Of a stretch of 32,000 nucleotides of DNA, positions 4,785 to 32,000 are shown piece by piece. The notes beneath the pieces were generated by a model. That model was not told where the DNA came from and did not search any database. It saw only the letters and a program-made list of their open reading frames with translations. The DNA lies in contig NC_014833.1 in the NCBI RefSeq assembly GCF_000179635.2, positions 2,760,001-2,792,000 on the forward strand. The letters are read 5' to 3'. A program made the position numbers and the translations under genes. The stretch is from Ruminococcus albus 7 = DSM 20455 (GTDB taxonomy: Bacteria > Bacillota > Clostridia > Oscillospirales > Ruminococcaceae). Positions within the stretch are counted from its first letter, which is position 1; each line of letters opens with the position of its first letter.

Positions 4785-4840
4785 TTTTCATTGGTCATAT
4801 GTTTTTGGTTATAGGATAGAATTGTGAGGGGAAAATTATA

Positions 4841-6211
4841 ATGAAGGATCTGACAAAAGGCGAGCCTACCCGGCTGTTGCTGCTGTTTGCCATACCCATG
4901 CTGCTCGGAAACGTGTTCCAGCAGTTTTACAATCTGGCAGATACAAGGATAGTCGGTCAATATCTCGGTGAAAACCCACTGGCTGCTGTCGGCGCTACGT
5001 CTTCGATCAACAACGTTATTATCGGATTCATGCACGGATTAACCGGCGGATTCAGCCTTACTGCCGCCCGTGCATTCGGTGAAAAAAATTATGATAAGCT
5101 CAAAAAGACTGTGGCTGCAACAGTGGTACTAGGAGGAGTGACCTGTATAGTGCTCACTATACTTAGCCTCCTGTTCATCGATCCCCTGCTGCACGCTATA
5201 AACGTGGAACCCGATATCTATAATGACGCTAAAAGTTATATAACAATGATACTCGCAGGAATGGGGATAATCCTCTGCTACAATGCTATGGCATCGCTGA
5301 TGCGTGCTATAGGCGATACAGTCATGCCGCTGGTATTCCTTATATTCTCAGCATTCGGAAATATAATTCTTGATATACTGTTTGTAAAATATCTGAGGTT
5401 AGGCATAAGGGGCGCTGCCGCTGCTACTCTTATCACTTCCGGTATGTCGGCCGTTGCCTGTTTTATCTATATGAAGAAAAAATACCCGTTCCTCATACCC
5501 TCAGCTGAGCATTTCAAATTCTCACGCAAGTTTGCAGGTGATATGTACGCATCGGGCTGTTCTATGGGACTTATGAATTCCATGGTAGGTCTTGGCTCCC
5601 TTATAATGCAGGGTGCGATAAATAACCTCGGCAAAGATACCATCAACGCTCATATCGCCGCAAGAAAGATAAGTGAGATGTGCATGATGCCTATGATGGC
5701 ATTCGGCGGTGCTGCTTCAAACTTCGCCGGTCAGAACTACGGTGCAGGAAAATACTCGAGAGTACGCAAGGGTTTTTACAGTGCCACCATGCTTACCTGG
5801 ATATGGAGCGTATTCGCTATCATAGCTGTATACGTAGGCACACCTTTCTTCGTACAGGCAATAACAGGTCTGCATAAAGAATATATAATCAAAACAGCAT
5901 CTCAGTATACCCATTTCAATTTCCCATTCTATTTCGTACTCGGTATAATATTCGTGTTCAGGCATTCACTGCAAAGTGTCAAGATAAAGCTTATGCCCAC
6001 AATGTCCAGCTTTATCGAGCTTGTAGGAAAAATAGTCGTATCCTTCCTGCTGGCACCGAAGATAGGCTATAAGGCTATTATAATATCCGAACCGATCTCA
6101 TGGCTGTTCATGACACCGGTGCTTATATGGGGATTTGTAAGCTGCAAACAGCTGAAAGAACCCGATGTTCCCGATATCGACTCAAAATCACTTGCAGGCG
6201 CAAAACTATAA
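4841..6211 (+). CDS. MATE family multidrug/toxic-compound efflux transporter
   Basis: 456-aa polytopic membrane ORF. The N-terminus LLLLFAIPMLLGNVFQQFYNLADTRIVGQYLG..LAAVG is typical of MATE/NorM-like pumps. Confidence 0.85.
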   Translation: MKDLTKGEPTRLLLLFAIPMLLGNVFQQFYNLADTRIVGQYLGENPLAAVGATSSINNVIIGFMHGLTGGFSLTAARAFGEKNYDKLKKTVAATVVLGGVTCIVLTILSLLFIDPLLHAINVEPDIYNDAKSYITMILAGMGIILCYNAMASLMRAIGDTVMPLVFLIFSAFGNIILDILFVKYLRLGIRGAAAATLITSGMSAVACFIYMKKKYPFLIPSAEHFKFSRKFAGDMYASGCSMGLMNSMVGLGSLIMQGAINNLGKDTINAHIAARKISEMCMMPMMAFGGAASNFAGQNYGAGKYSRVRKGFYSATMLTWIWSVFAIIAVYVGTPFFVQAITGLHKEYIIKTASQYTHFNFPFYFVLGIIFVFRHSLQSVKIKLMPTMSSFIELVGKIVVSFLLAPKIGYKAIIISEPISWLFMTPVLIWGFVSCKQLKEPDVPDIDSKSLAGAKL

Positions 6212-25219: not shown

Positions 25220-25972
25220 TTATAATCCCCTAGGCTTACGCCTGAAAACATAAAGTTCACGCTGAGTAGTATCGCATGGCGGATCATTTGTCAGCCCGTC
25301 GTATACTCCTATCTGTTCAAAGTCATACTCCTCCGCCGTCTCCTCGATAAGGTCACGCGGTAGCAGTATCTCACTGATGTACTCGCTCTCACGGGTGTAG
25401 CTGCCGTCCTCTTTTTCAGCAAAGAAATCCAATGCGATATCCACCCTGCCGTCTGCGCGGCAGTTATTCCTCCATGCACAGAACAGCCCGTCAAGTTCAT
25501 AGACGAAACAGTTATCGCCCAGTACCTCACGGTGCTTGTACTCGGTATTCACATCAAATATAAACAGCCCGCCGTCACAGGTGAACATTGAAGCACGCTC
25601 CACAGTCCTGCGGAAAGCTTCCTCATTCGGCAGATGATTCATGCCGTCAAGAACGCATACTATCATATCCGCAGCGCCCCAGAGGTCAAGTTCCGACATA
25701 TCCTGGCATATATAGGTGATATCGCTGTCAGGTGTACGCTGTTCCTCAGCTTCCTCCAGCATATCCGCCGAGATATCCACACCGATAACGTCCAGCCCAA
25801 ACTTTTCAAGTTCACGGCAAAGTCTGCCAGTGCCGCAGCCCAGTTCAACGACTACCTCGTTCTCACTGCTGTATTCAAGCCCCAGCTGACGTATCCTTGC
25901 AGCTATCGCCCCATAGGGCACATCCTTCTGCAAGGCATCGTAATATCCGGCAAAGCTGCTGTAGCCGTTCAT
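25220..25972 (-). CDS. Class I SAM-dependent methyltransferase
   Basis: Motif I VVELGCGTGRL followed by an acidic residue (GVDIS). Its start overlaps the upstream gene's stop by 4 nt (25969-25972). Confidence 0.8.
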   Translation of the reverse strand: MNGYSSFAGYYDALQKDVPYGAIAARIRQLGLEYSSENEVVVELGCGTGRLCRELEKFGLDVIGVDISADMLEEAEEQRTPDSDITYICQDMSELDLWGAADMIVCVLDGMNHLPNEEAFRRTVERASMFTCDGGLFIFDVNTEYKHREVLGDNCFVYELDGLFCAWRNNCRADGRVDIALDFFAEKEDGSYTRESEYISEILLPRDLIEETAEEYDFEQIGVYDGLTNDPPCDTTQRELYVFRRKPRGL

Positions 25973-26277
25973 TCCTCGGATCCCTTTTTCTTCTCCAGCC
26001 TGTCGAAGACTATGTTATATCCGCCGCTGCCGTCATAGGAAAGCGACCTGTTCACACGGCTGATTGTAGCCGTAGAAGCCCCTGTCTCCTTGACGATATC
26101 GCTGTATACGTGCTTGTCTGTCAGCATCCTGGCTACCTGAAAGCGCTGTGAAAAGCTCTTCAGCTCAGGAACGGTACACAGATCTTTAAAGAAAAGCCTG
26201 CACTCATCAAGAGTTTCCAGGCATAGTATCGCTTCGTAAAGCTCATCAAGATTTGCTATCTCTAATTTATCACGCAT
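25969..26277 (-). CDS. yerC: YerC/YecD-family TrpR-like DNA-binding protein
   Basis: The sequence ...LCTVPELKSFSQRFQVARMLTDKHVYSDIVKETGASTATISRVNRSL matches the family hallmark. The preferred start is ATG 26277, 8 nt after AGGAG; the tracked ORF starts at 26346 inside the promoter/att region. Confidence 0.7.
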   Translation of the reverse strand: MRDKLEIANLDELYEAILCLETLDECRLFFKDLCTVPELKSFSQRFQVARMLTDKHVYSDIVKETGASTATISRVNRSLSYDGSGGYNIVFDRLEKKKGSEE

Positions 26278-26336
26278 AAAAAACACTCCTTTACATCTAC
26301 TGTTTTTCATATTGTAAAGTGCTAAATCACAATTAT

Positions 26337-26365
26337 ATTTTAGCACATTACAGCGTAAATGTCAA
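26337..26365 (-). promoter_or_regulatory. Promoter of the yerC-like operon spanning the attL junction
   Basis: On the minus strand: TTGACA (26360-26365), 17-nt spacer, TGcTAAAAT (-10 at 26337-26342). The -35 box is half repeat core and half element DNA. Confidence 0.5.
26344..26362 (+). repeat. attL core CACATTACAGCGTAAATGT
   Basis: Identical 19-mer at 31686-31704. Extending by four bases (CAAG here, AAAG at attR) gives 22 of 23 matches. Confidence 0.8.
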
Positions 26366-26408
26366 GAAGTGCTTATAAACATTTTTCATTAAAATCAAAT
26401 GCATTTTA

Positions 26409-26434
26409 TAAAAGTGCGTATTTACGCTATTTTC
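26409..26434 (+). repeat. Dyad site A: TAAAAGTGCGTA-TT-TACGCTATTTTC
   Basis: 26-bp 12-2-12 imperfect palindrome. One of three copies of a roughly 30-bp element-specific motif, and the only one with central dinucleotide TT. Confidence 0.7.
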
Positions 26435-26495
26435 CGTTCTTCTCTGTTTCTTATCTGCTCTCAAAAGTCAAATAAGATTTATAAAAATCAACTCA

Positions 26496-26527
26496 AATGT
26501 CACCCGAATGTCAACCAAATGTCAACC
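26496..26527 (+). repeat. Three tandem AAATGTCA(A/C)CC repeats (11-bp period) next to the integrase 3' end
   Basis: AAATGTCACCC, GAATGTCAACC and AAATGTCAACC are read directly. The same motif recurs at 26357, 31052 and three times at 31616-31643, always in this orientation. Confidence 0.6.
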
Positions 26528-26545
26528 AAATACAAGTACAAAAAA

Positions 26546-27733
26546 TCACACTGCTTTATTAACTGTCCATGTTATGTTTCGTTCGCAGCTGTCTTTTTCT
26601 GTATCAAAATAGCAATCAAGCAGTTTGCCCGAATACTCTTTTGTCAACTTTTCTTTTTCTTCATGCCTAGCGTGTGTGTACACTGTTTTAGATACACCAC
26701 CCTTTAAAGACCAACCACCAACAATTTCCGCAATTGTACAATCTTTGTTATCACTTATGAATATGTGTCTTAATATGTGTGCTGTTATCCAATCATATCC
26801 GTTCTTAATAGCAAGTTGTTTAATACAACTACCATACTGCCAATTACATATTGAAATCACAAAATCATCATCTGATTTATGTTCAATACTATGTATCATG
26901 TCATACAATCTGTTGTCAATCAGAAATCTTCTTGTACTGTATTCATTCTTAGTTTCTTCTCTAAAATGGTCTTTACCTCTAATACAAGTCTTTGTAGCAT
27001 GAATATTCACATAACAATTACCGTTCTTCTCTTTGATAACGTCTTTAAATTTAAGCCCTCTGACTTCTTCAACCCTTAAACTGTGCAGACCGAGCAGCAC
27101 ACAAACAGCTGTCCTGTCTTTGTATTTCGTTGTATCAGCTTTAAGCCATTCAACAACATCAAGTGCAGTAGGCAAATTTTCAAAGTCTTTCTTTCTGCCT
27201 TTACCTATATATGTTGCATTGTTGACATAGCTTTTCAGTTCCTTTTGTACCTTTGGTGTTAAAGCTGGCACTTCAAAATAATTTAATACCACGCATAAAA
27301 CAGTAAACTCACGTTTCATAGTGGTTTTTGCACATCCTTTTGCTATATCCGTGTTAATAGCTTGCATTAAATCACTTTTAGTTATCTGTCTAATAGGTTT
27401 ATTTTGCAGTTCTTTGAAGTAGTATTTTATTGTATTGCGATAACTGTTAAGCGTGTTATATGCCAATGAAGCATGAGTATTGATATAGCTTTCAAACGCG
27501 TTGACAAGTGTAATATTATCACCGTGATTACTTTCTAACTCAATAATCAGTTCTTCAACTTTCTTTGATAGCTCATTAAGAGATTTTGCAGTTACCTTTT
27601 TTCTAATGCGTTTACCGCTTTCATCTTTACCGAAGTCAGCTTGTATATAATAATTACCGTTATCCGCTATATGTGCATTAAACTGTCTGTCACCAACATA
27701 AAAACAATTAGTATTGCTTTTTTTCTTAGCCAT
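26546..27733 (-). CDS. Tyrosine-type site-specific recombinase (integrase)
   Basis: About 395 aa with an SAM-like N-terminal domain and a catalytic C-terminus (LGLHSLRVEEVRGL..., AHILRHIF, VYTHA). Start ATG 27733 follows AAGGAG. Confidence 0.8.
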   Translation of the reverse strand: MAKKKSNTNCFYVGDRQFNAHIADNGNYYIQADFGKDESGKRIRKKVTAKSLNELSKKVEELIIELESNHGDNITLVNAFESYINTHASLAYNTLNSYRNTIKYYFKELQNKPIRQITKSDLMQAINTDIAKGCAKTTMKREFTVLCVVLNYFEVPALTPKVQKELKSYVNNATYIGKGRKKDFENLPTALDVVEWLKADTTKYKDRTAVCVLLGLHSLRVEEVRGLKFKDVIKEKNGNCYVNIHATKTCIRGKDHFREETKNEYSTRRFLIDNRLYDMIHSIEHKSDDDFVISICNWQYGSCIKQLAIKNGYDWITAHILRHIFISDNKDCTIAEIVGGWSLKGGVSKTVYTHARHEEKEKLTKEYSGKLLDCYFDTEKDSCERNITWTVNKAV

Positions 27734-27781
27734 AAATACTCCTTTCACATGATAGCAACACTAACACATAATTGCATCAGT

Positions 27782-27810
27782 ATTGTATCATGTTTTTAAC
27801 GTGAAGTCAA
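27782..27810 (-). promoter_or_regulatory. Candidate integrase promoter
   Basis: On the minus strand: TTGACT (27805-27810), 17-nt spacer, TACAAT (27782-27787). Confidence 0.45.
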
Positions 27811-27842
27811 GTTTATATGTAATATCAGAACATGGAATATTT

Positions 27843-28097
27843 TTAAAACTGTTCTAACTCACACAAGCTGTCAATATGATATACTTTACAGAAATTATAA
27901 ATTGATGATAGTTTCAGATTATCTGCACTTTGACTATAGTTGCTAACTGTTGTCGGAGTTACTTGTAAAGCCCTTGCAAGTTCCGTCCTATCTATCTTGT
28001 TATACTTGCAATAACCTTTTATTTTACTCCAAAGATAATTAGATGTTAGTTTGTCTGGTGTTTTTGCTGTGTTTGTGAAATTGATATTGGTATTCAT
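27843..28097 (-). CDS. Small XRE-type helix-turn-helix DNA-binding protein
   Basis: IDRTELARALQVTPTTVSNYSQ is a classic HTH_3-type motif. The preferred start is ATG 28097, after the AGAGGGAA RBS; the tracked ORF starts 20 codons upstream. Confidence 0.65.
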   Translation of the reverse strand: MNTNINFTNTAKTPDKLTSNYLWSKIKGYCKYNKIDRTELARALQVTPTTVSNYSQSADNLKLSSIYNFCKVYHIDSLCELEQF

Positions 28098-28123
28098 TTC
28101 TATTCCCTCTTTCTTTATATCAG

Positions 28124-28161
28124 CTTTAGAATTGCTCTCTGTTGTATTGTACGGCATTGTA
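28124..28161 (+). repeat. Copy 1 of a 38-bp perfect direct repeat upstream of the HTH gene
   Basis: CTTTAGAATTGCTCTCTGTTGTATTGTACGGCATTGTA is identical to 28213-28250. Confidence 0.8.
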
Positions 28162-28212
28162 AAGCCTGCTGTTGTATTTGTCGTATCTCTATACTACCTT
28201 ACCATGTATCAA

Positions 28213-28250
28213 CTTTAGAATTGCTCTCTGTTGTATTGTACGGCATTGTA
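28213..28250 (+). repeat. Copy 2 of the 38-bp perfect direct repeat
   Basis: Identical to 28124-28161. The submotif CTGTTGTATT also occurs between the two copies at about 28169-28178. Confidence 0.8.
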
Positions 28251-28492
28251 TAATTAAAACTGTGATTTTAATTTTTATGTTCTTAATTCTAGTCTTTATA
28301 GATAGTGCTATTATTATATTCTGATTTACTATTCTAGTTTTTATGTATCTGTGTAATTTATGATTATTAATGATAATTACTATATTAGTCATTTGCAAAA
28401 TTACAAAAGTGCATTTCAGCCCTATATTATGCGGTTTAAAGCACATCTGACATTTTCAAAAAGTTAGTCAACGACTAATTATTTTAGCTGTA

Positions 28493-29563
28493 TCAACTAT
28501 CAAAAAATCTTTCACCACTTGAAATGATTTTATTAACATACTCCGTTAATAACTTCATGCTTATTGGCTCAAAACCTTTTTTTCGCTTATAATCAGATGC
28601 AGCCGTGTTAGGTGCTTTATATCCTAACCACTTAAAGAAATCAGATAATTGTTCTTGTGTATAGAAATGGTCTATATACTTTGATAGAAATTCATATACT
28701 GACATATTTTTGTATGTAGTTTTTTCCTTTTTCCATCGCTCATATAACCGATTATTCTTTTCTTCTTGTAGGGTTTTATATAAATCACTATCAAGAATTT
28801 TCAAAAGCTTTGTTTTCCATTTTTCAAACTCTTTTCTTTCATCAGTATTGTTTGCCATTTTACATGACCTTAATTCTAATCTAGTATCAACATTTCCATT
28901 TGGTTCTTGTTTGCGTTTATGATAATACTCAATTTGAAAATATTGTGTTTGCGCTCTAAGTGTCAAACGTTCACACGATATGATGTCGGTACTTGCGTAT
29001 CTGTTTTTTATATTATACTTTTGGGATAATAATGCTATTAAAACGTTATTGAGTTTCCATAACTTATTAAATGTGTTATCATCGAAAAAGTCAAACCTAA
29101 AATCAACCCTTGACAATGATAATTCTCTAGCGGTCAATTCAAGGTTAAACATCATTTCATCAAACACTTTGGTATATTCACTTTTTTTATAGATACCAAT
29201 ATTATCATTAAATTTGTCGGGATTAACAACATATAACCACCGACCATCTTTCAAACATTTCCGCTTGTTATTATGTACATAATCTTTTTGTTTAATTACT
29301 TCTTCTTCAATTTCTTTGTCCGTCTTAATTTGAATAGTGTCAATTCCTGCATACATCTCGCTTTCAGAAAGTATCTTTAATGTATCAGGTGATTTAACTT
29401 TTTCACCTATATAATCAAGCACTAACTTAACAGCTTTATCTAATTCCTGTTCTCTGCTAATATGCCCCTGTGCAAATTGGTATTCAATCATTCTCAACCT
29501 AAAATTAGAGCGGTTATTTTTTCTTAATTTTCTTATTTCGTTTATTTCTTTTCCATATAACAT
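28493..29563 (-). CDS. Putative replication initiator / relaxase of the Rep_trans type
   Basis: About 356 aa. LSRVDFRFDFFD and YYHKRKQ...NVDTRLELRSCK resemble the conserved Rep_trans blocks (xDxxFD; YDK...R.E.R). Start ATG 29563 is 8 nt after GGAGG. The family call rests on motif resemblance only. Confidence 0.5.
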   Translation of the reverse strand: MLYGKEINEIRKLRKNNRSNFRLRMIEYQFAQGHISREQELDKAVKLVLDYIGEKVKSPDTLKILSESEMYAGIDTIQIKTDKEIEEEVIKQKDYVHNNKRKCLKDGRWLYVVNPDKFNDNIGIYKKSEYTKVFDEMMFNLELTARELSLSRVDFRFDFFDDNTFNKLWKLNNVLIALLSQKYNIKNRYASTDIISCERLTLRAQTQYFQIEYYHKRKQEPNGNVDTRLELRSCKMANNTDERKEFEKWKTKLLKILDSDLYKTLQEEKNNRLYERWKKEKTTYKNMSVYEFLSKYIDHFYTQEQLSDFFKWLGYKAPNTAASDYKRKKGFEPISMKLLTEYVNKIISSGERFFDS

Positions 29564-29700
29564 TTTATATTCCTCCAATCTTTTATCTATTTATTTTCTG
29601 TGTTTATTTTCAATTCAATCATAAGCACCACCACCATTTTATTTTATAAAGAATGTTTGATTTTAAGTTATATCAAATTGTCTTTTGTATTTTCAAGCTT

Positions 29701-29730
29701 ATTATACCCCAATCAAATAGAAAATGTAAA
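29701..29730 (-). promoter_or_regulatory. Candidate promoter of the Rep gene
   Basis: On the minus strand: TTTACA (29725-29730), 18-nt spacer, TATAAT (29701-29706). Confidence 0.4.
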
Positions 29731-30047
29731 CCCTTGCATTGTAAAATCTGTATAATTTACAAACAATCAAGGTGAATACTGTACGCGCTATTGTACATAT
29801 TATTCATGATAAATAATGAATGTGATAAAAATTAATAACATCACATTCACTGTTATACACTTACAATCTTAACATTTTGAATTGTTCGGTGTACACTTCG
29901 GTGAAAGTCCGAAATCCTTGTGTTTAGATGAACTAGGTAATAGCTTTACTGTACAATTATTTACCCTGTAAAGTTTTAATTTCCCCTATATCATGGTAGT
30001 TTTTATTCAATAGCCGAATAGTAAATTATAGTATTTTATTAGCACTC

Positions 30048-30073
30048 TAAAAGTGCGTAAATACGCTGTTTTA
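30048..30073 (+). repeat. Dyad site B: TAAAAGTGCGTA-AA-TACGCTGTTTTA
   Basis: 26-bp 12-2-12 palindrome with 10 of 12 positions symmetric and central dinucleotide AA. It shares the flank GTTTTAAGC with site C. Confidence 0.7.
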
Positions 30074-30184
30074 AGCACTTTAAATTGTTCGGTAGCATTT
30101 TTTCAATACCTGGTATGTGAATGAAGTAGCCATAAACATATAAAAAGTTAGCAAGAATTGTTATCATGTTCTATTTTAAACATA

Positions 30185-30228
30185 TAAAAAGCCTGCTATC
30201 ATTTGTTATCTTTTTGATAGCAGGCTTT
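30185..30228 (-). terminator. Terminator of the serine recombinase gene
   Basis: 13-bp perfect stem AAAGCCTGCTATC (30188-30200) / GATAGCAGGCTTT (30216-30228), followed on the minus strand by TTTTTATATG. Confidence 0.75.
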
Positions 30229-30231
30229 GTA

Positions 30232-30978
30232 TTATTCTATTCCGTATTCGGCAAACAGTTCAGACTTGTATTTATAGTAACTGTTTCTTGCAACTCCAAC
30301 ACCTTGACCATTTATCATAGCTATTGTATCAATATCATTCAGTGTACCATTCCCAAAAGCCTTGTGATACTTTACAATCATTTCTTTAACAGCTATTGAC
30401 TTCTTTGTTGTTACCGTCTGTCCGTTCTGTCTGCCTATCTTTTTCCCCTTTGCTTTAGCCTCTCTGATACCCTCGCTTGTTCTGCCGTGTAAATCCTGAA
30501 CTTCTTTTTCGCTTTGTTCAAATGCAAGCCTAATTTGTTTTTCTGCTAACTTAGTGATGTAAATAGCTACTTCTGACATAATGCCATTTATCAATCTGTC
30601 TGTATCATCATCATTTGTATTCACTTTAATTGATAACTTGTTCTCACCTAAAACCGACTTAAAACTATCTGTGTTTATTGTCTGTTCTTTGAGAAATACA
30701 AGGTTAATACCTTTGTTGTATAGTTCCATGTATGTGTTAAATCCTTCTTCTGCATTTCTACTCATTCTGCTAACACTATCAAATACAATCGTATCTCCTG
30801 CATGAACTATTTTAAGCAGCTTAATCCACTCTGGTCTGTTGCTCTTTGTTCCTGTGTATACCTCTGCTTTAATATCTGCTGTCGGGTATGCTCTTTTGAT
30901 GTTAGTAATCTGTCTGTCAATACTTTGTTTTGCTGTTGATATTCTGCAATAGCCATAAACCTTATTATTTTCTTTCAT
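30232..30978 (-). CDS. Small serine recombinase (resolvase/invertase family) with C-terminal HTH
   Basis: N-terminal YGYCRISTAKQSIDRQ (catalytic Ser), VFDSVSRMSRN, and a C-terminal GVARNSYYKYK HTH. AAGGAG RBS. Confidence 0.85.
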   Translation of the reverse strand: MKENNKVYGYCRISTAKQSIDRQITNIKRAYPTADIKAEVYTGTKSNRPEWIKLLKIVHAGDTIVFDSVSRMSRNAEEGFNTYMELYNKGINLVFLKEQTINTDSFKSVLGENKLSIKVNTNDDDTDRLINGIMSEVAIYITKLAEKQIRLAFEQSEKEVQDLHGRTSEGIREAKAKGKKIGRQNGQTVTTKKSIAVKEMIVKYHKAFGNGTLNDIDTIAMINGQGVGVARNSYYKYKSELFAEYGIE

Positions 30979-31031
30979 GTTTGAACACTCCTTTTGTATT
31001 ATTTTAAACGTTCGCTTATTTTGATACTGTG

Positions 31032-31060
31032 ATTATAACATCATTCAAACCAAATGTCAA
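31032..31060 (-). promoter_or_regulatory. Consensus promoter of the serine recombinase gene
   Basis: On the minus strand: TTGACA (31055-31060), 17-nt spacer, TATAAT (31032-31037). The -35 box is the complement of an AAATGTCAA motif copy. Confidence 0.6.
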
Positions 31061-31114
31061 TAGGTTTTGATACTTTTTTCTTTAACGTTCAAAATAATAC
31101 TATCTATTTACCGA

Positions 31115-31149
31115 AACAAAAAAGGCTCACTAATAAATAGCAAGCCTTT
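31115..31149 (-). terminator. Terminator of the 141-aa orphan gene
   Basis: Stem AAAGGCT (31121-31127) / AGCCTTT (31143-31149), followed on the minus strand by TTTTTTGTTT. Confidence 0.55.
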
Positions 31150-31154
31150 ACGTA

Positions 31155-31580
31155 TCATATATAGTTACAATACTTTTGCAGTTCCTTGTTCACTCTCAAT
31201 GCAAGCTGATAATCTTTACTGTCAGCACCAAGCACAACAACATAATCAGTATAATCCAAGCAATCATCACTTATTGTCTTTATCTGCTTAACAATAACGC
31301 TATCCCAATCAAGCAATAATATTGTTTCCATTCTGGTCTTTATAGTCAAGTGTGTTTCTCTGACTTTAACAATCGGGTTGATAACACGACTTGTAAGCCA
31401 CGAAATAAAACTGTCCTCTCCGTCTGACTTGCCTATATCTATTACAAGTTCTGCACCAACACCACGCTTTAGTCTGTCCATGTCCGTCAAATCCCAACTA
31501 TCATCTTTACGAAAGTCAAAAGCTGGGTCTGCAAGTTTAAAAATCTCTTTTACTTCTTCGATAGAATTAACATTGTTCAT
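31155..31580 (-). CDS. 141-aa hypothetical protein (sole unassigned cargo gene of the element)
   Basis: ORF with an AGAGG RBS and its own terminator. I recognise no motif in it. Confidence 0.55.
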   Translation of the reverse strand: MNNVNSIEEVKEIFKLADPAFDFRKDDSWDLTDMDRLKRGVGAELVIDIGKSDGEDSFISWLTSRVINPIVKVRETHLTIKTRMETILLLDWDSVIVKQIKTISDDCLDYTDYVVVLGADSKDYQLALRVNKELQKYCNYI

Positions 31581-31615
31581 TTGTGTATACCTCTTTTACA
31601 TAATATTCGCAATCA

Positions 31616-31643
31616 TGTGTCAATGTCAACTAAAATGTCAACC
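31616..31643 (+). repeat. Three clustered TGTCAA(C) motif copies at the right end of the element
   Basis: ATGTGTCAATGTCAACTAAAATGTCAACC is read directly. Same orientation as the left-end array. Confidence 0.55.
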
Positions 31644-31651
31644 TTGTTTTA

Positions 31652-31677
31652 TAAAAGTGCGTAAATACGTTGTTTTA
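31652..31677 (+). repeat. Dyad site C: TAAAAGTGCGTA-AA-TACGTTGTTTTA
   Basis: Third copy of the 26-bp dyad motif, central dinucleotide AA. It ends 8 bp from the attR core. Confidence 0.7.
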
Positions 31678-31685
31678 AGCTAATT

Positions 31686-31704
31686 CACATTACAGCGTAA
31701 ATGT
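31686..31704 (+). repeat. attR core CACATTACAGCGTAAATGT
   Basis: Identical to 26344-26362. Confidence 0.8.
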
Positions 31705-31746
31705 AAAGGGGTATATTGAATATTTTATATTAATATTTTAAAATTT

Positions 31747-32000
31747 TTATCTGTTGCGGTTAGGTGTAAGAAATCCCGCAGGCGGCTCACTGTCATCTTC
31801 GTAATCGGGCGCTTCTTCGGAAATATCTTCCTCCTCAGCATCCTCGGTGCGTGTGTACCAGTCTTCGCGTATCTCCTCGATGATCGCTTTCAGCTCATCA
31901 ACACCCTCGCCCGTTACCGCCGAGAATGGTATACAATGTATATCCTCAAAGTACGGTATCTCATCTTTGAAAGCTTCCATACGCTCCTTGCGTGCGGTAG
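31747..32000 (-). CDS. C-terminal part of a GTP-binding protein (EngB/YsxC-like), with an acidic tail; 5' end outside the window
   Basis: The frame is open to position 32000 (...TARKERMEAFKDEIPYFEDIHCIPFSAVTGEGVDELKAIIEEI...). SAxTGEGVDEL is the G5-region pattern of small ribosome-biogenesis GTPases. The subfamily assignment is tentative. Confidence 0.55.
   Translation of the reverse strand, partial: TARKERMEAFKDEIPYFEDIHCIPFSAVTGEGVDELKAIIEEIREDWYTRTEDAEEEDISEEAPDYEDDSEPPAGFLTPNRNR

Follow-up and report, generated by a model that had tools for sequence, protein, structure and literature searches.

Three 26-bp dyads in a small integrative element of Ruminococcus albus 7: possible dimer-binding sites of its excision and replication module

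In a 32,000-nucleotide stretch of the Ruminococcus albus 7 chromosome (contig NC_014833.1, positions 2,760,001 to 2,792,000; hereafter the window), a 5.3-kb island carries three copies, A, B, and C, of a 26-bp imperfect dyad. We propose that these are dimer-binding sites of the excision/replication module of a small integrative element, with a 361-aa protein encoded by the element and resembling the Rep_trans class of rolling-circle initiators (the Rep-like protein, gene rep) as the most likely binder. We put the probability of this reading, in which we infer both the identity of the binder and the effect of its binding, at about 0.45. The original prediction for this DNA, made from the letters of the window alone, had favored hix-like crossover sites of a 248-aa serine recombinase from the same island, with accessory sites of the integration machinery as a fallback; its anatomy of the dyads, their proximity to the attachment (att) cores, and its gene calls stand, but its crossover mechanism does not.

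All three 26-mers described in the original prediction are present on the + strand: A at 26409..26434 (TAAAAGTGCGTA-TT-TACGCTATTTTC), B at 30048..30073 (TAAAAGTGCGTA-AA-TACGCTGTTTTA) in the 650-bp non-coding region between the terminator of the recombinase gene and rep, and C at 31652..31677 (TAAAAGTGCGTA-AA-TACGTTGTTTTA). With up to three mismatches allowed, the dyad consensus is matched three times against an expectation of 0.00 (100 shuffles), and no dyad half-sites besides those of A, B, and C occur in the whole 32-kb window; a fourth copy proposed by a repeat finder at 28401-28428 is just 71% identical and was not counted. The 12-2-12 architecture holds up, with quasi-symmetric arms matching at 10 of 12 positions, as does the description of one copy with a flipped center: A and B share the left-right asymmetry of their outer arms (AAAAGTGCGTA on the left, TACGYTRTTTT on the right), and the inner 12 bp of A (GCGTATTTACGC) are the exact reverse complement of those of B (GCGTAAATACGC).

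The three sites are not equally well kept. Dyad A is conserved in all close relatives of the element and in the more diverged L158, where C is degenerate (a 1-nt deletion) and B is absent; B is an extra, lineage-specific copy that decays among relatives, with two mismatches in L030/L031, three in L145 (all in one arm), and 3 bp inserted at its center in L157. The center states (TT in A, AA in B and C) are repeated in the diverged element copies L030/L031, L144/L145, and L156. Read in the sense of rep, the center of A is AA, and the copy found in every lineage (A in the window and in L158, and the sites of L175 and L178, two further relatives described below) has AA or AT, with TT in B and C and CC in the second site of L178. 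Because its AA/AT rep-sense center is the one found in every lineage, A appears to be the canonical copy, with B and C as variants. Since the centers of related sites range over AA, AT, TT, and CC, the central two bases seem to behave as an unread spacer, not as the polarity signal assigned to them in the original prediction; such a center fits a symmetric dimer site and misfits both a crossover dinucleotide and a nick site.

The island spans 5342 bp at ~30% GC in a ~50% GC genome, and its edges are 23-bp direct repeats of CACATTACAGCGTAAATGTCAAG on the + strand, the attL core at 26344-26366 and the attR core at 31686-31708. Its genes all lie on the minus strand and were correctly called in the original prediction: orf141, the serine recombinase, the 361-aa protein, a helix-turn-helix (HTH) protein, and a tyrosine integrase (Int). 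Among protein matches, the closest carry the names Ruminococcus albus and Ruminococcus sp. The circular contig L156 (5267 bp) runs HTH, int, A, a single att core, C, orf141, recombinase, B, rep, and its length corresponds to that of the island minus a collapsed 89-bp tandem repeat unit; because gene order, the single core, and length all match, we read L156 as the excised circle of the element, with a single attP. In this attP the succession is arm repeats, 8 bp, C, 8 bp, core, 42 bp, A, 59 bp, and arm repeats, with the same distances from A and C to the cores and arm repeats in the window; the placement of A and C close to the att cores in the original prediction is thus borne out, and in the circle both flank the attP core. 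An 11-mer of the att core, ACAGCGTAAAT (26350-26360 and 31692-31702), recurs in site A of L156 and in the dyad of the phage sites described below, and window site A matches it at 10 of 11 bases (ATAGCGTAAAT); coincidence is an unlikely explanation of this sharing.

The Rep-like protein (28493..29578, minus strand, 361 aa) has no Pfam, PHROG, or NCBIfam match, and members of its family have neither a Pfam match, PF02486 included, nor a PDB sequence match. Its family, which is new, comprises 378 clusters and shares the motifs GIDT, NPNK, RxDFRFD, ExExYNK, and RLELRSK, and Tyr219, inside ExExYNK, is invariant. An AlphaFold model built on an 84-sequence alignment has a pLDDT of 92.3 (an earlier model from a shallow alignment, with a pLDDT of 54.7, was unusable), and its best PDB matches are four chains of 4CIJ, a Rep_trans initiator, with a probability of 1.0 and E = 3e-6 to 1e-5 at TM-scores of only 0.26-0.36. 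The next structural match is TBP, a resemblance that a structural paper on the Rep_trans family is said to note. At the level of the modeled fold, the 4CIJ match supports a rolling-circle initiator (Rep_trans) assignment for the 361-aa protein, and with it the guess of "rep" in the original prediction. No Rep-like genes were found in IMG/VR (three protein-based scans), PLSDB, or INPHARED. Members of the family (P0143-P0291) pair with tyrosine or large serine integrases in ~5-kb elements, and in L175, L177, L178, and L179 the Rep-like gene directly follows an HNH/NUMOD4 gene.

Four lineages, namely the window clade, L158, L175, and L178, have dyads with a CGTA-NN-TACG core, and the Rep-like protein is the sole gene product common to them. 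That of L158 is 60% identical to the protein of the window. L175 is a complete circular relative of 5574 bp, closing on a 30-bp terminal overlap, with a dyad (AAAAACAACGTA-AT-AACGCACTTTTT) in the position equivalent to C. L178 has a large serine integrase and no homologue of the window integrase or HTH protein, and carries two intergenic dyads, ACGTA-AA-TACGT and ACGTA-CC-TACGT, which are the sole repeated palindrome there. Conversely, relatives of the integrase and HTH protein that have no Rep-like gene (L171/L173, L174, and L176) have no dyad.

Rep_trans family proteins recognize inverted repeats of ~24-26 bp as dimers (PMC5775427, PMC9371924); binding takes place at one inverted repeat, and the nick is made in the loop of a second (PMC5775427). 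In the related MOBT proteins, the CT'AA nick falls within a GC-rich hairpin, apart from the inverted repeat that is bound (PMC9371924). Should the Rep-like protein bind the dyads, these would be "bind"-type sites, since the 26-mers are unlike nick hairpins. We envisage the island as an integrative replicon that excises to a circle, in which C and A flank the attP core, each with a cluster of integrase arm-type repeats on its outer side, and B lies upstream of rep. The Rep_trans-fold protein would bind the dyads as a dimer, its characterized relatives being dimeric, and the dyads would then serve as origin-type "bind" sites that couple replication of the circle to the att region, and possibly also as operators. 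Site A (CGTA-AA-TACG, rep-sense) would be ancestral and B and C later additions, and the difference between AA and TT centers would reflect drift, possibly with AT as an intermediate.

This arrangement can be compared with ICRIII/ICRII of pT181-family origins and with IR2/IR1 of the ICESt3 oriT (sites of Rep_trans and MOBT proteins), which it would resemble in that the element encodes a protein of Rep_trans-like fold and the dyad appears to accompany the Rep-like gene through four lineages. It differs in having no GC-rich hairpin with a CT'AA loop and three copies per replicon, and in that the Rep-like protein, a candidate binder, lacks a PF02486 sequence match. Integrative elements of the pSAM2 type carry a rep-xis-int operon. 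The R. albus element is likewise small and circle-forming, with rep, a small DNA-binding protein gene, and int on one strand and a putative initiator of rolling-circle type, but it has a Firmicute host (Ruminococcus), a different Rep family, an extra serine invertase with a promoter switch, and no transfer genes. If the dyads are Rep-like sites within attP, they would link excision to rolling-circle replication in a family of very small integrative replicons, not described before, from rumen and gut Clostridia, and would be a first means of approaching the DNA specificity of a large unannotated initiator family, with its 378 clusters and no Pfam model.

Several observations weigh against assigning the dyads to the Rep-like protein. 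L177 has a Rep-like gene (39% identity) and no CGTA-NN-TACG dyad, and the dyad's presence in four of five lineages with a Rep-like gene versus none of three without one is a small sample. The 26-mer also occurs in ~45 phage-type contigs and at five chromosomal intergenic loci, with no Rep-like gene within 5-10 kb. Three copies would be unusual for a rolling-circle origin. The dyads also lack the nick hairpin typical of Rep_trans origins, in which a GC-rich stem carries CT'AA in a loop of 6 nt or more, and no such hairpin is conserved in the relatives. Moreover, A and C lie exactly at the positions expected of Xis- or IHF-type sites, and the HTH protein or a host protein is a serious alternative binder. 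As to folding, the window dyads form weak structures, with a 4-bp stem, a 4-nt loop, and about -1.6 to -4.2 kcal/mol for the dyad's own hairpin; 46-nt windows around them have z-scores of -2.3 to +0.4, the lower ones reflecting flank-arm pairing. At site B only, the left flank and left arm make a small GCACT-CTAAA-AGTGC hairpin (30042-30056), which has a CT'AA motif of Rep_trans type in its loop, and is found also in L156 but not in L145, L030, or L157; we rejected it as a canonical nick hairpin, as it overlaps site B in the window and L156 only and is not conserved.

Assigned instead to the HTH protein, acting like an Xis, or to a host DNA-bending protein, the dyads would be accessory sites of the att arms with an architectural or directionality function; with the DNA bent at A and C, the integrase could span the arm and core sites, and B would be an operator or a relic. 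We regard this as the next most probable reading, if on the unlikely side. The small Cro/C1-type HTH protein (27843..28157, minus strand) is encoded directly upstream of int (26546..27733, minus strand, 395 aa), is a candidate excision or regulatory factor, and forms with int a gene pair that is conserved in all relatives of the integrase. What we read as integrase arm-type sites are three copies of AATGTCAAC with 11-bp spacing on the int-proximal side (26494..26531, + strand), which are kept in L158 and have a variant sequence in L175, and ATGTCAA repeats on the distal side (31615..31643, + strand); the 11-bp-spaced repeats at both att arms look like such sites.

An accessory role is supported by the position of A and C in the excised circle, where each separates these repeats from the core on its side of attP, and by the spacing from C to the arm repeats, which is 8 bp in the window, 7 bp in L158 (integrase ~67% identical), and 8 bp in L175 (41%). 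The att-arm region is also conserved above coding sequence, the non-coding segment 26340-26539 being 93-98% identical between the window and L145 as against 84-92% for the int coding region; these are two host species, with flanking genes 73-88% identical. These three observations also count in favor of the excision/replication reading. The decay of B among relatives while A and C persist, and a center that needs only to be A/T-rich, as suits a bend site, point the same way. This reading nevertheless has to accommodate the integrase/HTH relatives without a dyad, the two related dyads of L178, which has a large serine integrase and no such HTH protein, the occurrence of the same 26-mer in promoter-like phage blocks outside any att context, and a phage protein whose HTH domain is 90% identical and which has no dyad within 5 kb. 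As the fallback of the original prediction it comes much nearer the evidence than crossover sites do.

The comparison with attP of the lambda type is instructive in both directions. As with the IHF (H) and Xis (X) sites there, a discrete site separates the arm-type sites from the core on either side, with conserved arm spacing and a small DNA-binding protein gene directly upstream of int. Unlike the asymmetric IHF sites and the direct repeats bound by Xis, however, the sites here are symmetric dyads, one of the three copies is outside att, phages carry the same sequence in non-att contexts, and closer relatives of the integrase are without it.

The phage copies raise the further alternative that the dyads are operators of a phage or host regulator not encoded by the element, which would be wired, satellite-like, into ~100-kb phages of the same host group; we think this unlikely. 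The 26-mer is present in 16 IMG/VR contigs, one Hominimerdicola contig, and ~27 phage-type metagenome contigs, none of which encodes a homologue of any element protein within 5-10 kb of it. The phage copy is identical to site B in its arms and matches site A of L156 at 25 of 26 positions. It lies within a conserved intergenic block of ~110 bp in phages of ~100 kb (L001-L016 and L112-L154; for example, L007 5290-5400), between replication-module genes and ~40 bp upstream of a methyltransferase or other genes; the genes on both sides are unrelated from contig to contig, so that the block looks like a portable promoter or junction cassette. One chromosomal copy lies in a divergent promoter region (L124 type). 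The phage and chromosomal copies argue for a binder beyond the element, or for cross-talk between element and phage, and to that extent also against the Rep-like protein.

Operators of this kind would account for the placement of the 26-mer near gene starts in a conserved block of ~45 phage-type contigs and in a chromosomal divergent promoter region, and the flanks of the phage block cannot be aligned with the element, so that the 26 bp emerge as a discrete selected unit. Yet we found no candidate regulator, and each phage locus has one copy only. In 650 kb of other gut-phage loci the strict core of the dyad occurs 0 times and the relaxed core once (the element's own C in L030), against 0-3 for control palindromes, and the strict pattern is found at only 10 loci across 185,579 species genomes. 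A general host-factor motif was accordingly rejected, the dyad core not being enriched in those 650 kb. A second dyad in the phage loci (AAAAGTGGCGTAGTTACGCGCTTTTT) lies inside an open reading frame (ORF) and was judged coincidental; 26-mer hits in Paludibacteraceae, whose flanks read through an ORF when translated by eye, and single hits in Prevotella, Wolinella, and Anaeroplasmataceae with two to three mismatches were judged to be chance or unrelated.

A separate connection between element and phage involves the HTH protein. L155 encodes (4794-5210) a 138-aa phage protein whose C-terminal 70 aa are 90% identical (86% at the DNA level) to the HTH protein of the element, which indicates, from sequence comparison, that the DNA-binding domain has probably been exchanged with a phage recently. 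We can also imagine the 26-bp dyad as a shared "address", such that an element factor (the Rep-like protein, for example) would bind or nick the phage site, or a phage factor would act on the att or origin region of the element, which would then be a new kind of satellite or anti-phage parasite; this we consider improbable.

A role for the dyads as weak bidirectional intrinsic terminators or insulators at module boundaries, with an A-tract, a stem-loop, and a T-tract, is very improbable. Perfect-palindrome relatives (AAAACCGCGTAWWTACGCGGTTTT) near tRNA 3′ ends and att arms do fold at -14 to -15 kcal/mol, and the phage 26-mer starts 8 nt past a stop codon. The window dyads, in contrast, fold weakly and none is called by a terminator scan, the two positions at which their arms mismatch (GT versus TG) are conserved, not compensated, and the recombinase gene already has a strong terminator downstream of it. 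The perfect palindromes, of the L159, L163, and L170 types, appear to be real terminators, but the search pattern forced their core and their integrases are unrelated, and we did not use them as evidence.

This leaves the model preferred in the original prediction, in which the dyads are hix/gix-like crossover sites of the 248-aa small serine recombinase (30232..30978, minus strand, PF00239), so that recombination of B with C deletes 1.6 kb and that of A with B or C inverts the int-HTH-rep segment. Its attractions are plain: like the sites of the Hin and Gin serine invertases, the dyads are imperfect 26-bp 12-2-12 sequences with an A/T center near a small serine recombinase gene, B and C share a center and flank the recombinase gene and orf141, and in L178 a different small resolvase gene has a related dyad ~95 bp upstream of it. 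However, the recombinase has sites of another type at its own promoter. These are two inverted 32-bp dyads of the GTATCAAAA type (30996..31100, minus strand), P1 (30996-31027; GTATCAAAATAAGCG-AA-CGTTTAAAATAATAC) lying just upstream of the recombinase start codon and its inverted partner P2 (31069-31100) 73 bp away, and they enclose a consensus promoter, TTGACA-17-TATAAT (31060..31032). The same architecture precedes the recombinase gene in diverged copies of the element, in a prophage homologue of Ruminococcus sp. YE71 (88% identical), and in most of 80 homologue loci from IMG/VR (L032-L111). The half-site motif of this family, GTATYAAAA...CG, is present at the recombinase promoter of the window element, its relatives, and most of the 80 viral loci, while GTATYAAAA and GTATC are absent from the 26-mers of A, B, and C.

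Nor do the dyads and the recombinase travel together. L027-L029 have a recombinase 88% identical to that of the window and no match to the 26-bp site at up to seven mismatches; L158 retains the recombinase (82%), P1/P2, and a good A, but lacks B and has a degraded C; the center of B in L157 carries its 3-bp insertion; and outside the window clade tblastn found no recombinase at the 16 viral, 10 genome, and ~40 metagenome loci with the 26-mer. The complete circular element L175 has a dyad and no serine recombinase, which comes close to the case that the original prediction had itself named as refuting it, relatives without the recombinase that keep all three sites. The predicted rearrangements are likewise not seen in eight assemblies of close relatives or in L158: the assemblies, among them L030, L031, L144, L145, L156, L157, and L158, are all collinear with the window, with no inversion and no 1.6-kb deletion. 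In these respects the system departs from hix/gix, in that the neighboring recombinase family has another site type and an invertible segment of 75 bp of its own, sites and recombinase each persist without the other, centers vary by copy and lineage, and the relatives' assemblies show no isoforms. Because its own sites differ and the dyads do not travel with it, the recombinase almost certainly does not act on the 26-bp dyads, and a crossover role for them is scarcely credible.

The more probable substrate of the recombinase is the segment at its own promoter. Among viral loci with the inverted repeats GTATTAAAAATGCCG and CGGCATTTTTGATAC, the inner segment of 75-76 bp is in one orientation in 30 contigs and in the exact reverse complement in 12; because both orientations occur in viral homologues, this promoter segment bears the signature of an invertible switch, presumably flipped by the recombinase family. 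It is unusually small for an invertible segment. The recombinase is thus not expected to rearrange the island, which removes a false lead and points to the 75-bp promoter switch, widespread in gut phages, as its real substrate. This switch, the Rep_trans-fold family, and the observed circular form may be of greater interest than the dyads themselves.

Within the island, orf141 (31155..31580, minus strand) is the first gene of an orf141-recombinase unit; its promoter, TTGACA-18-TATTAT at 31629..31600 on the minus strand, has a -35 element that overlaps the distal arm repeats. A non-coding block upstream of rep (~29880-29960) contains TTCGG/CCGAA hairpins and a GTGTACAC palindrome and is conserved in L030, L145, and L157 amid diverging surroundings. 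It has no Rfam match, nor do any Rfam families occur in 25900-32000, and its sequence suggests a possible single-strand origin or some other kind of origin element. Among cultured phages and plasmids, we found no near-identical DNA matching the element, the phage block, or the att arm. A 66-nt direct repeat (28096-28161 and 28185-28250, 89-bp spacing) covers the 5′ end of the HTH gene, and three independent assemblies (L030, L031, and L156) break or collapse there. The element is inserted in the promoter of a TrpR-like gene (25969-26277), where the native -35, TTTACA, is now at attR; a rebuilt promoter (26337-26365, minus strand) spans the attL core, with its -35, TTGACA, from the element and its -10, TAAAAT, from the host.

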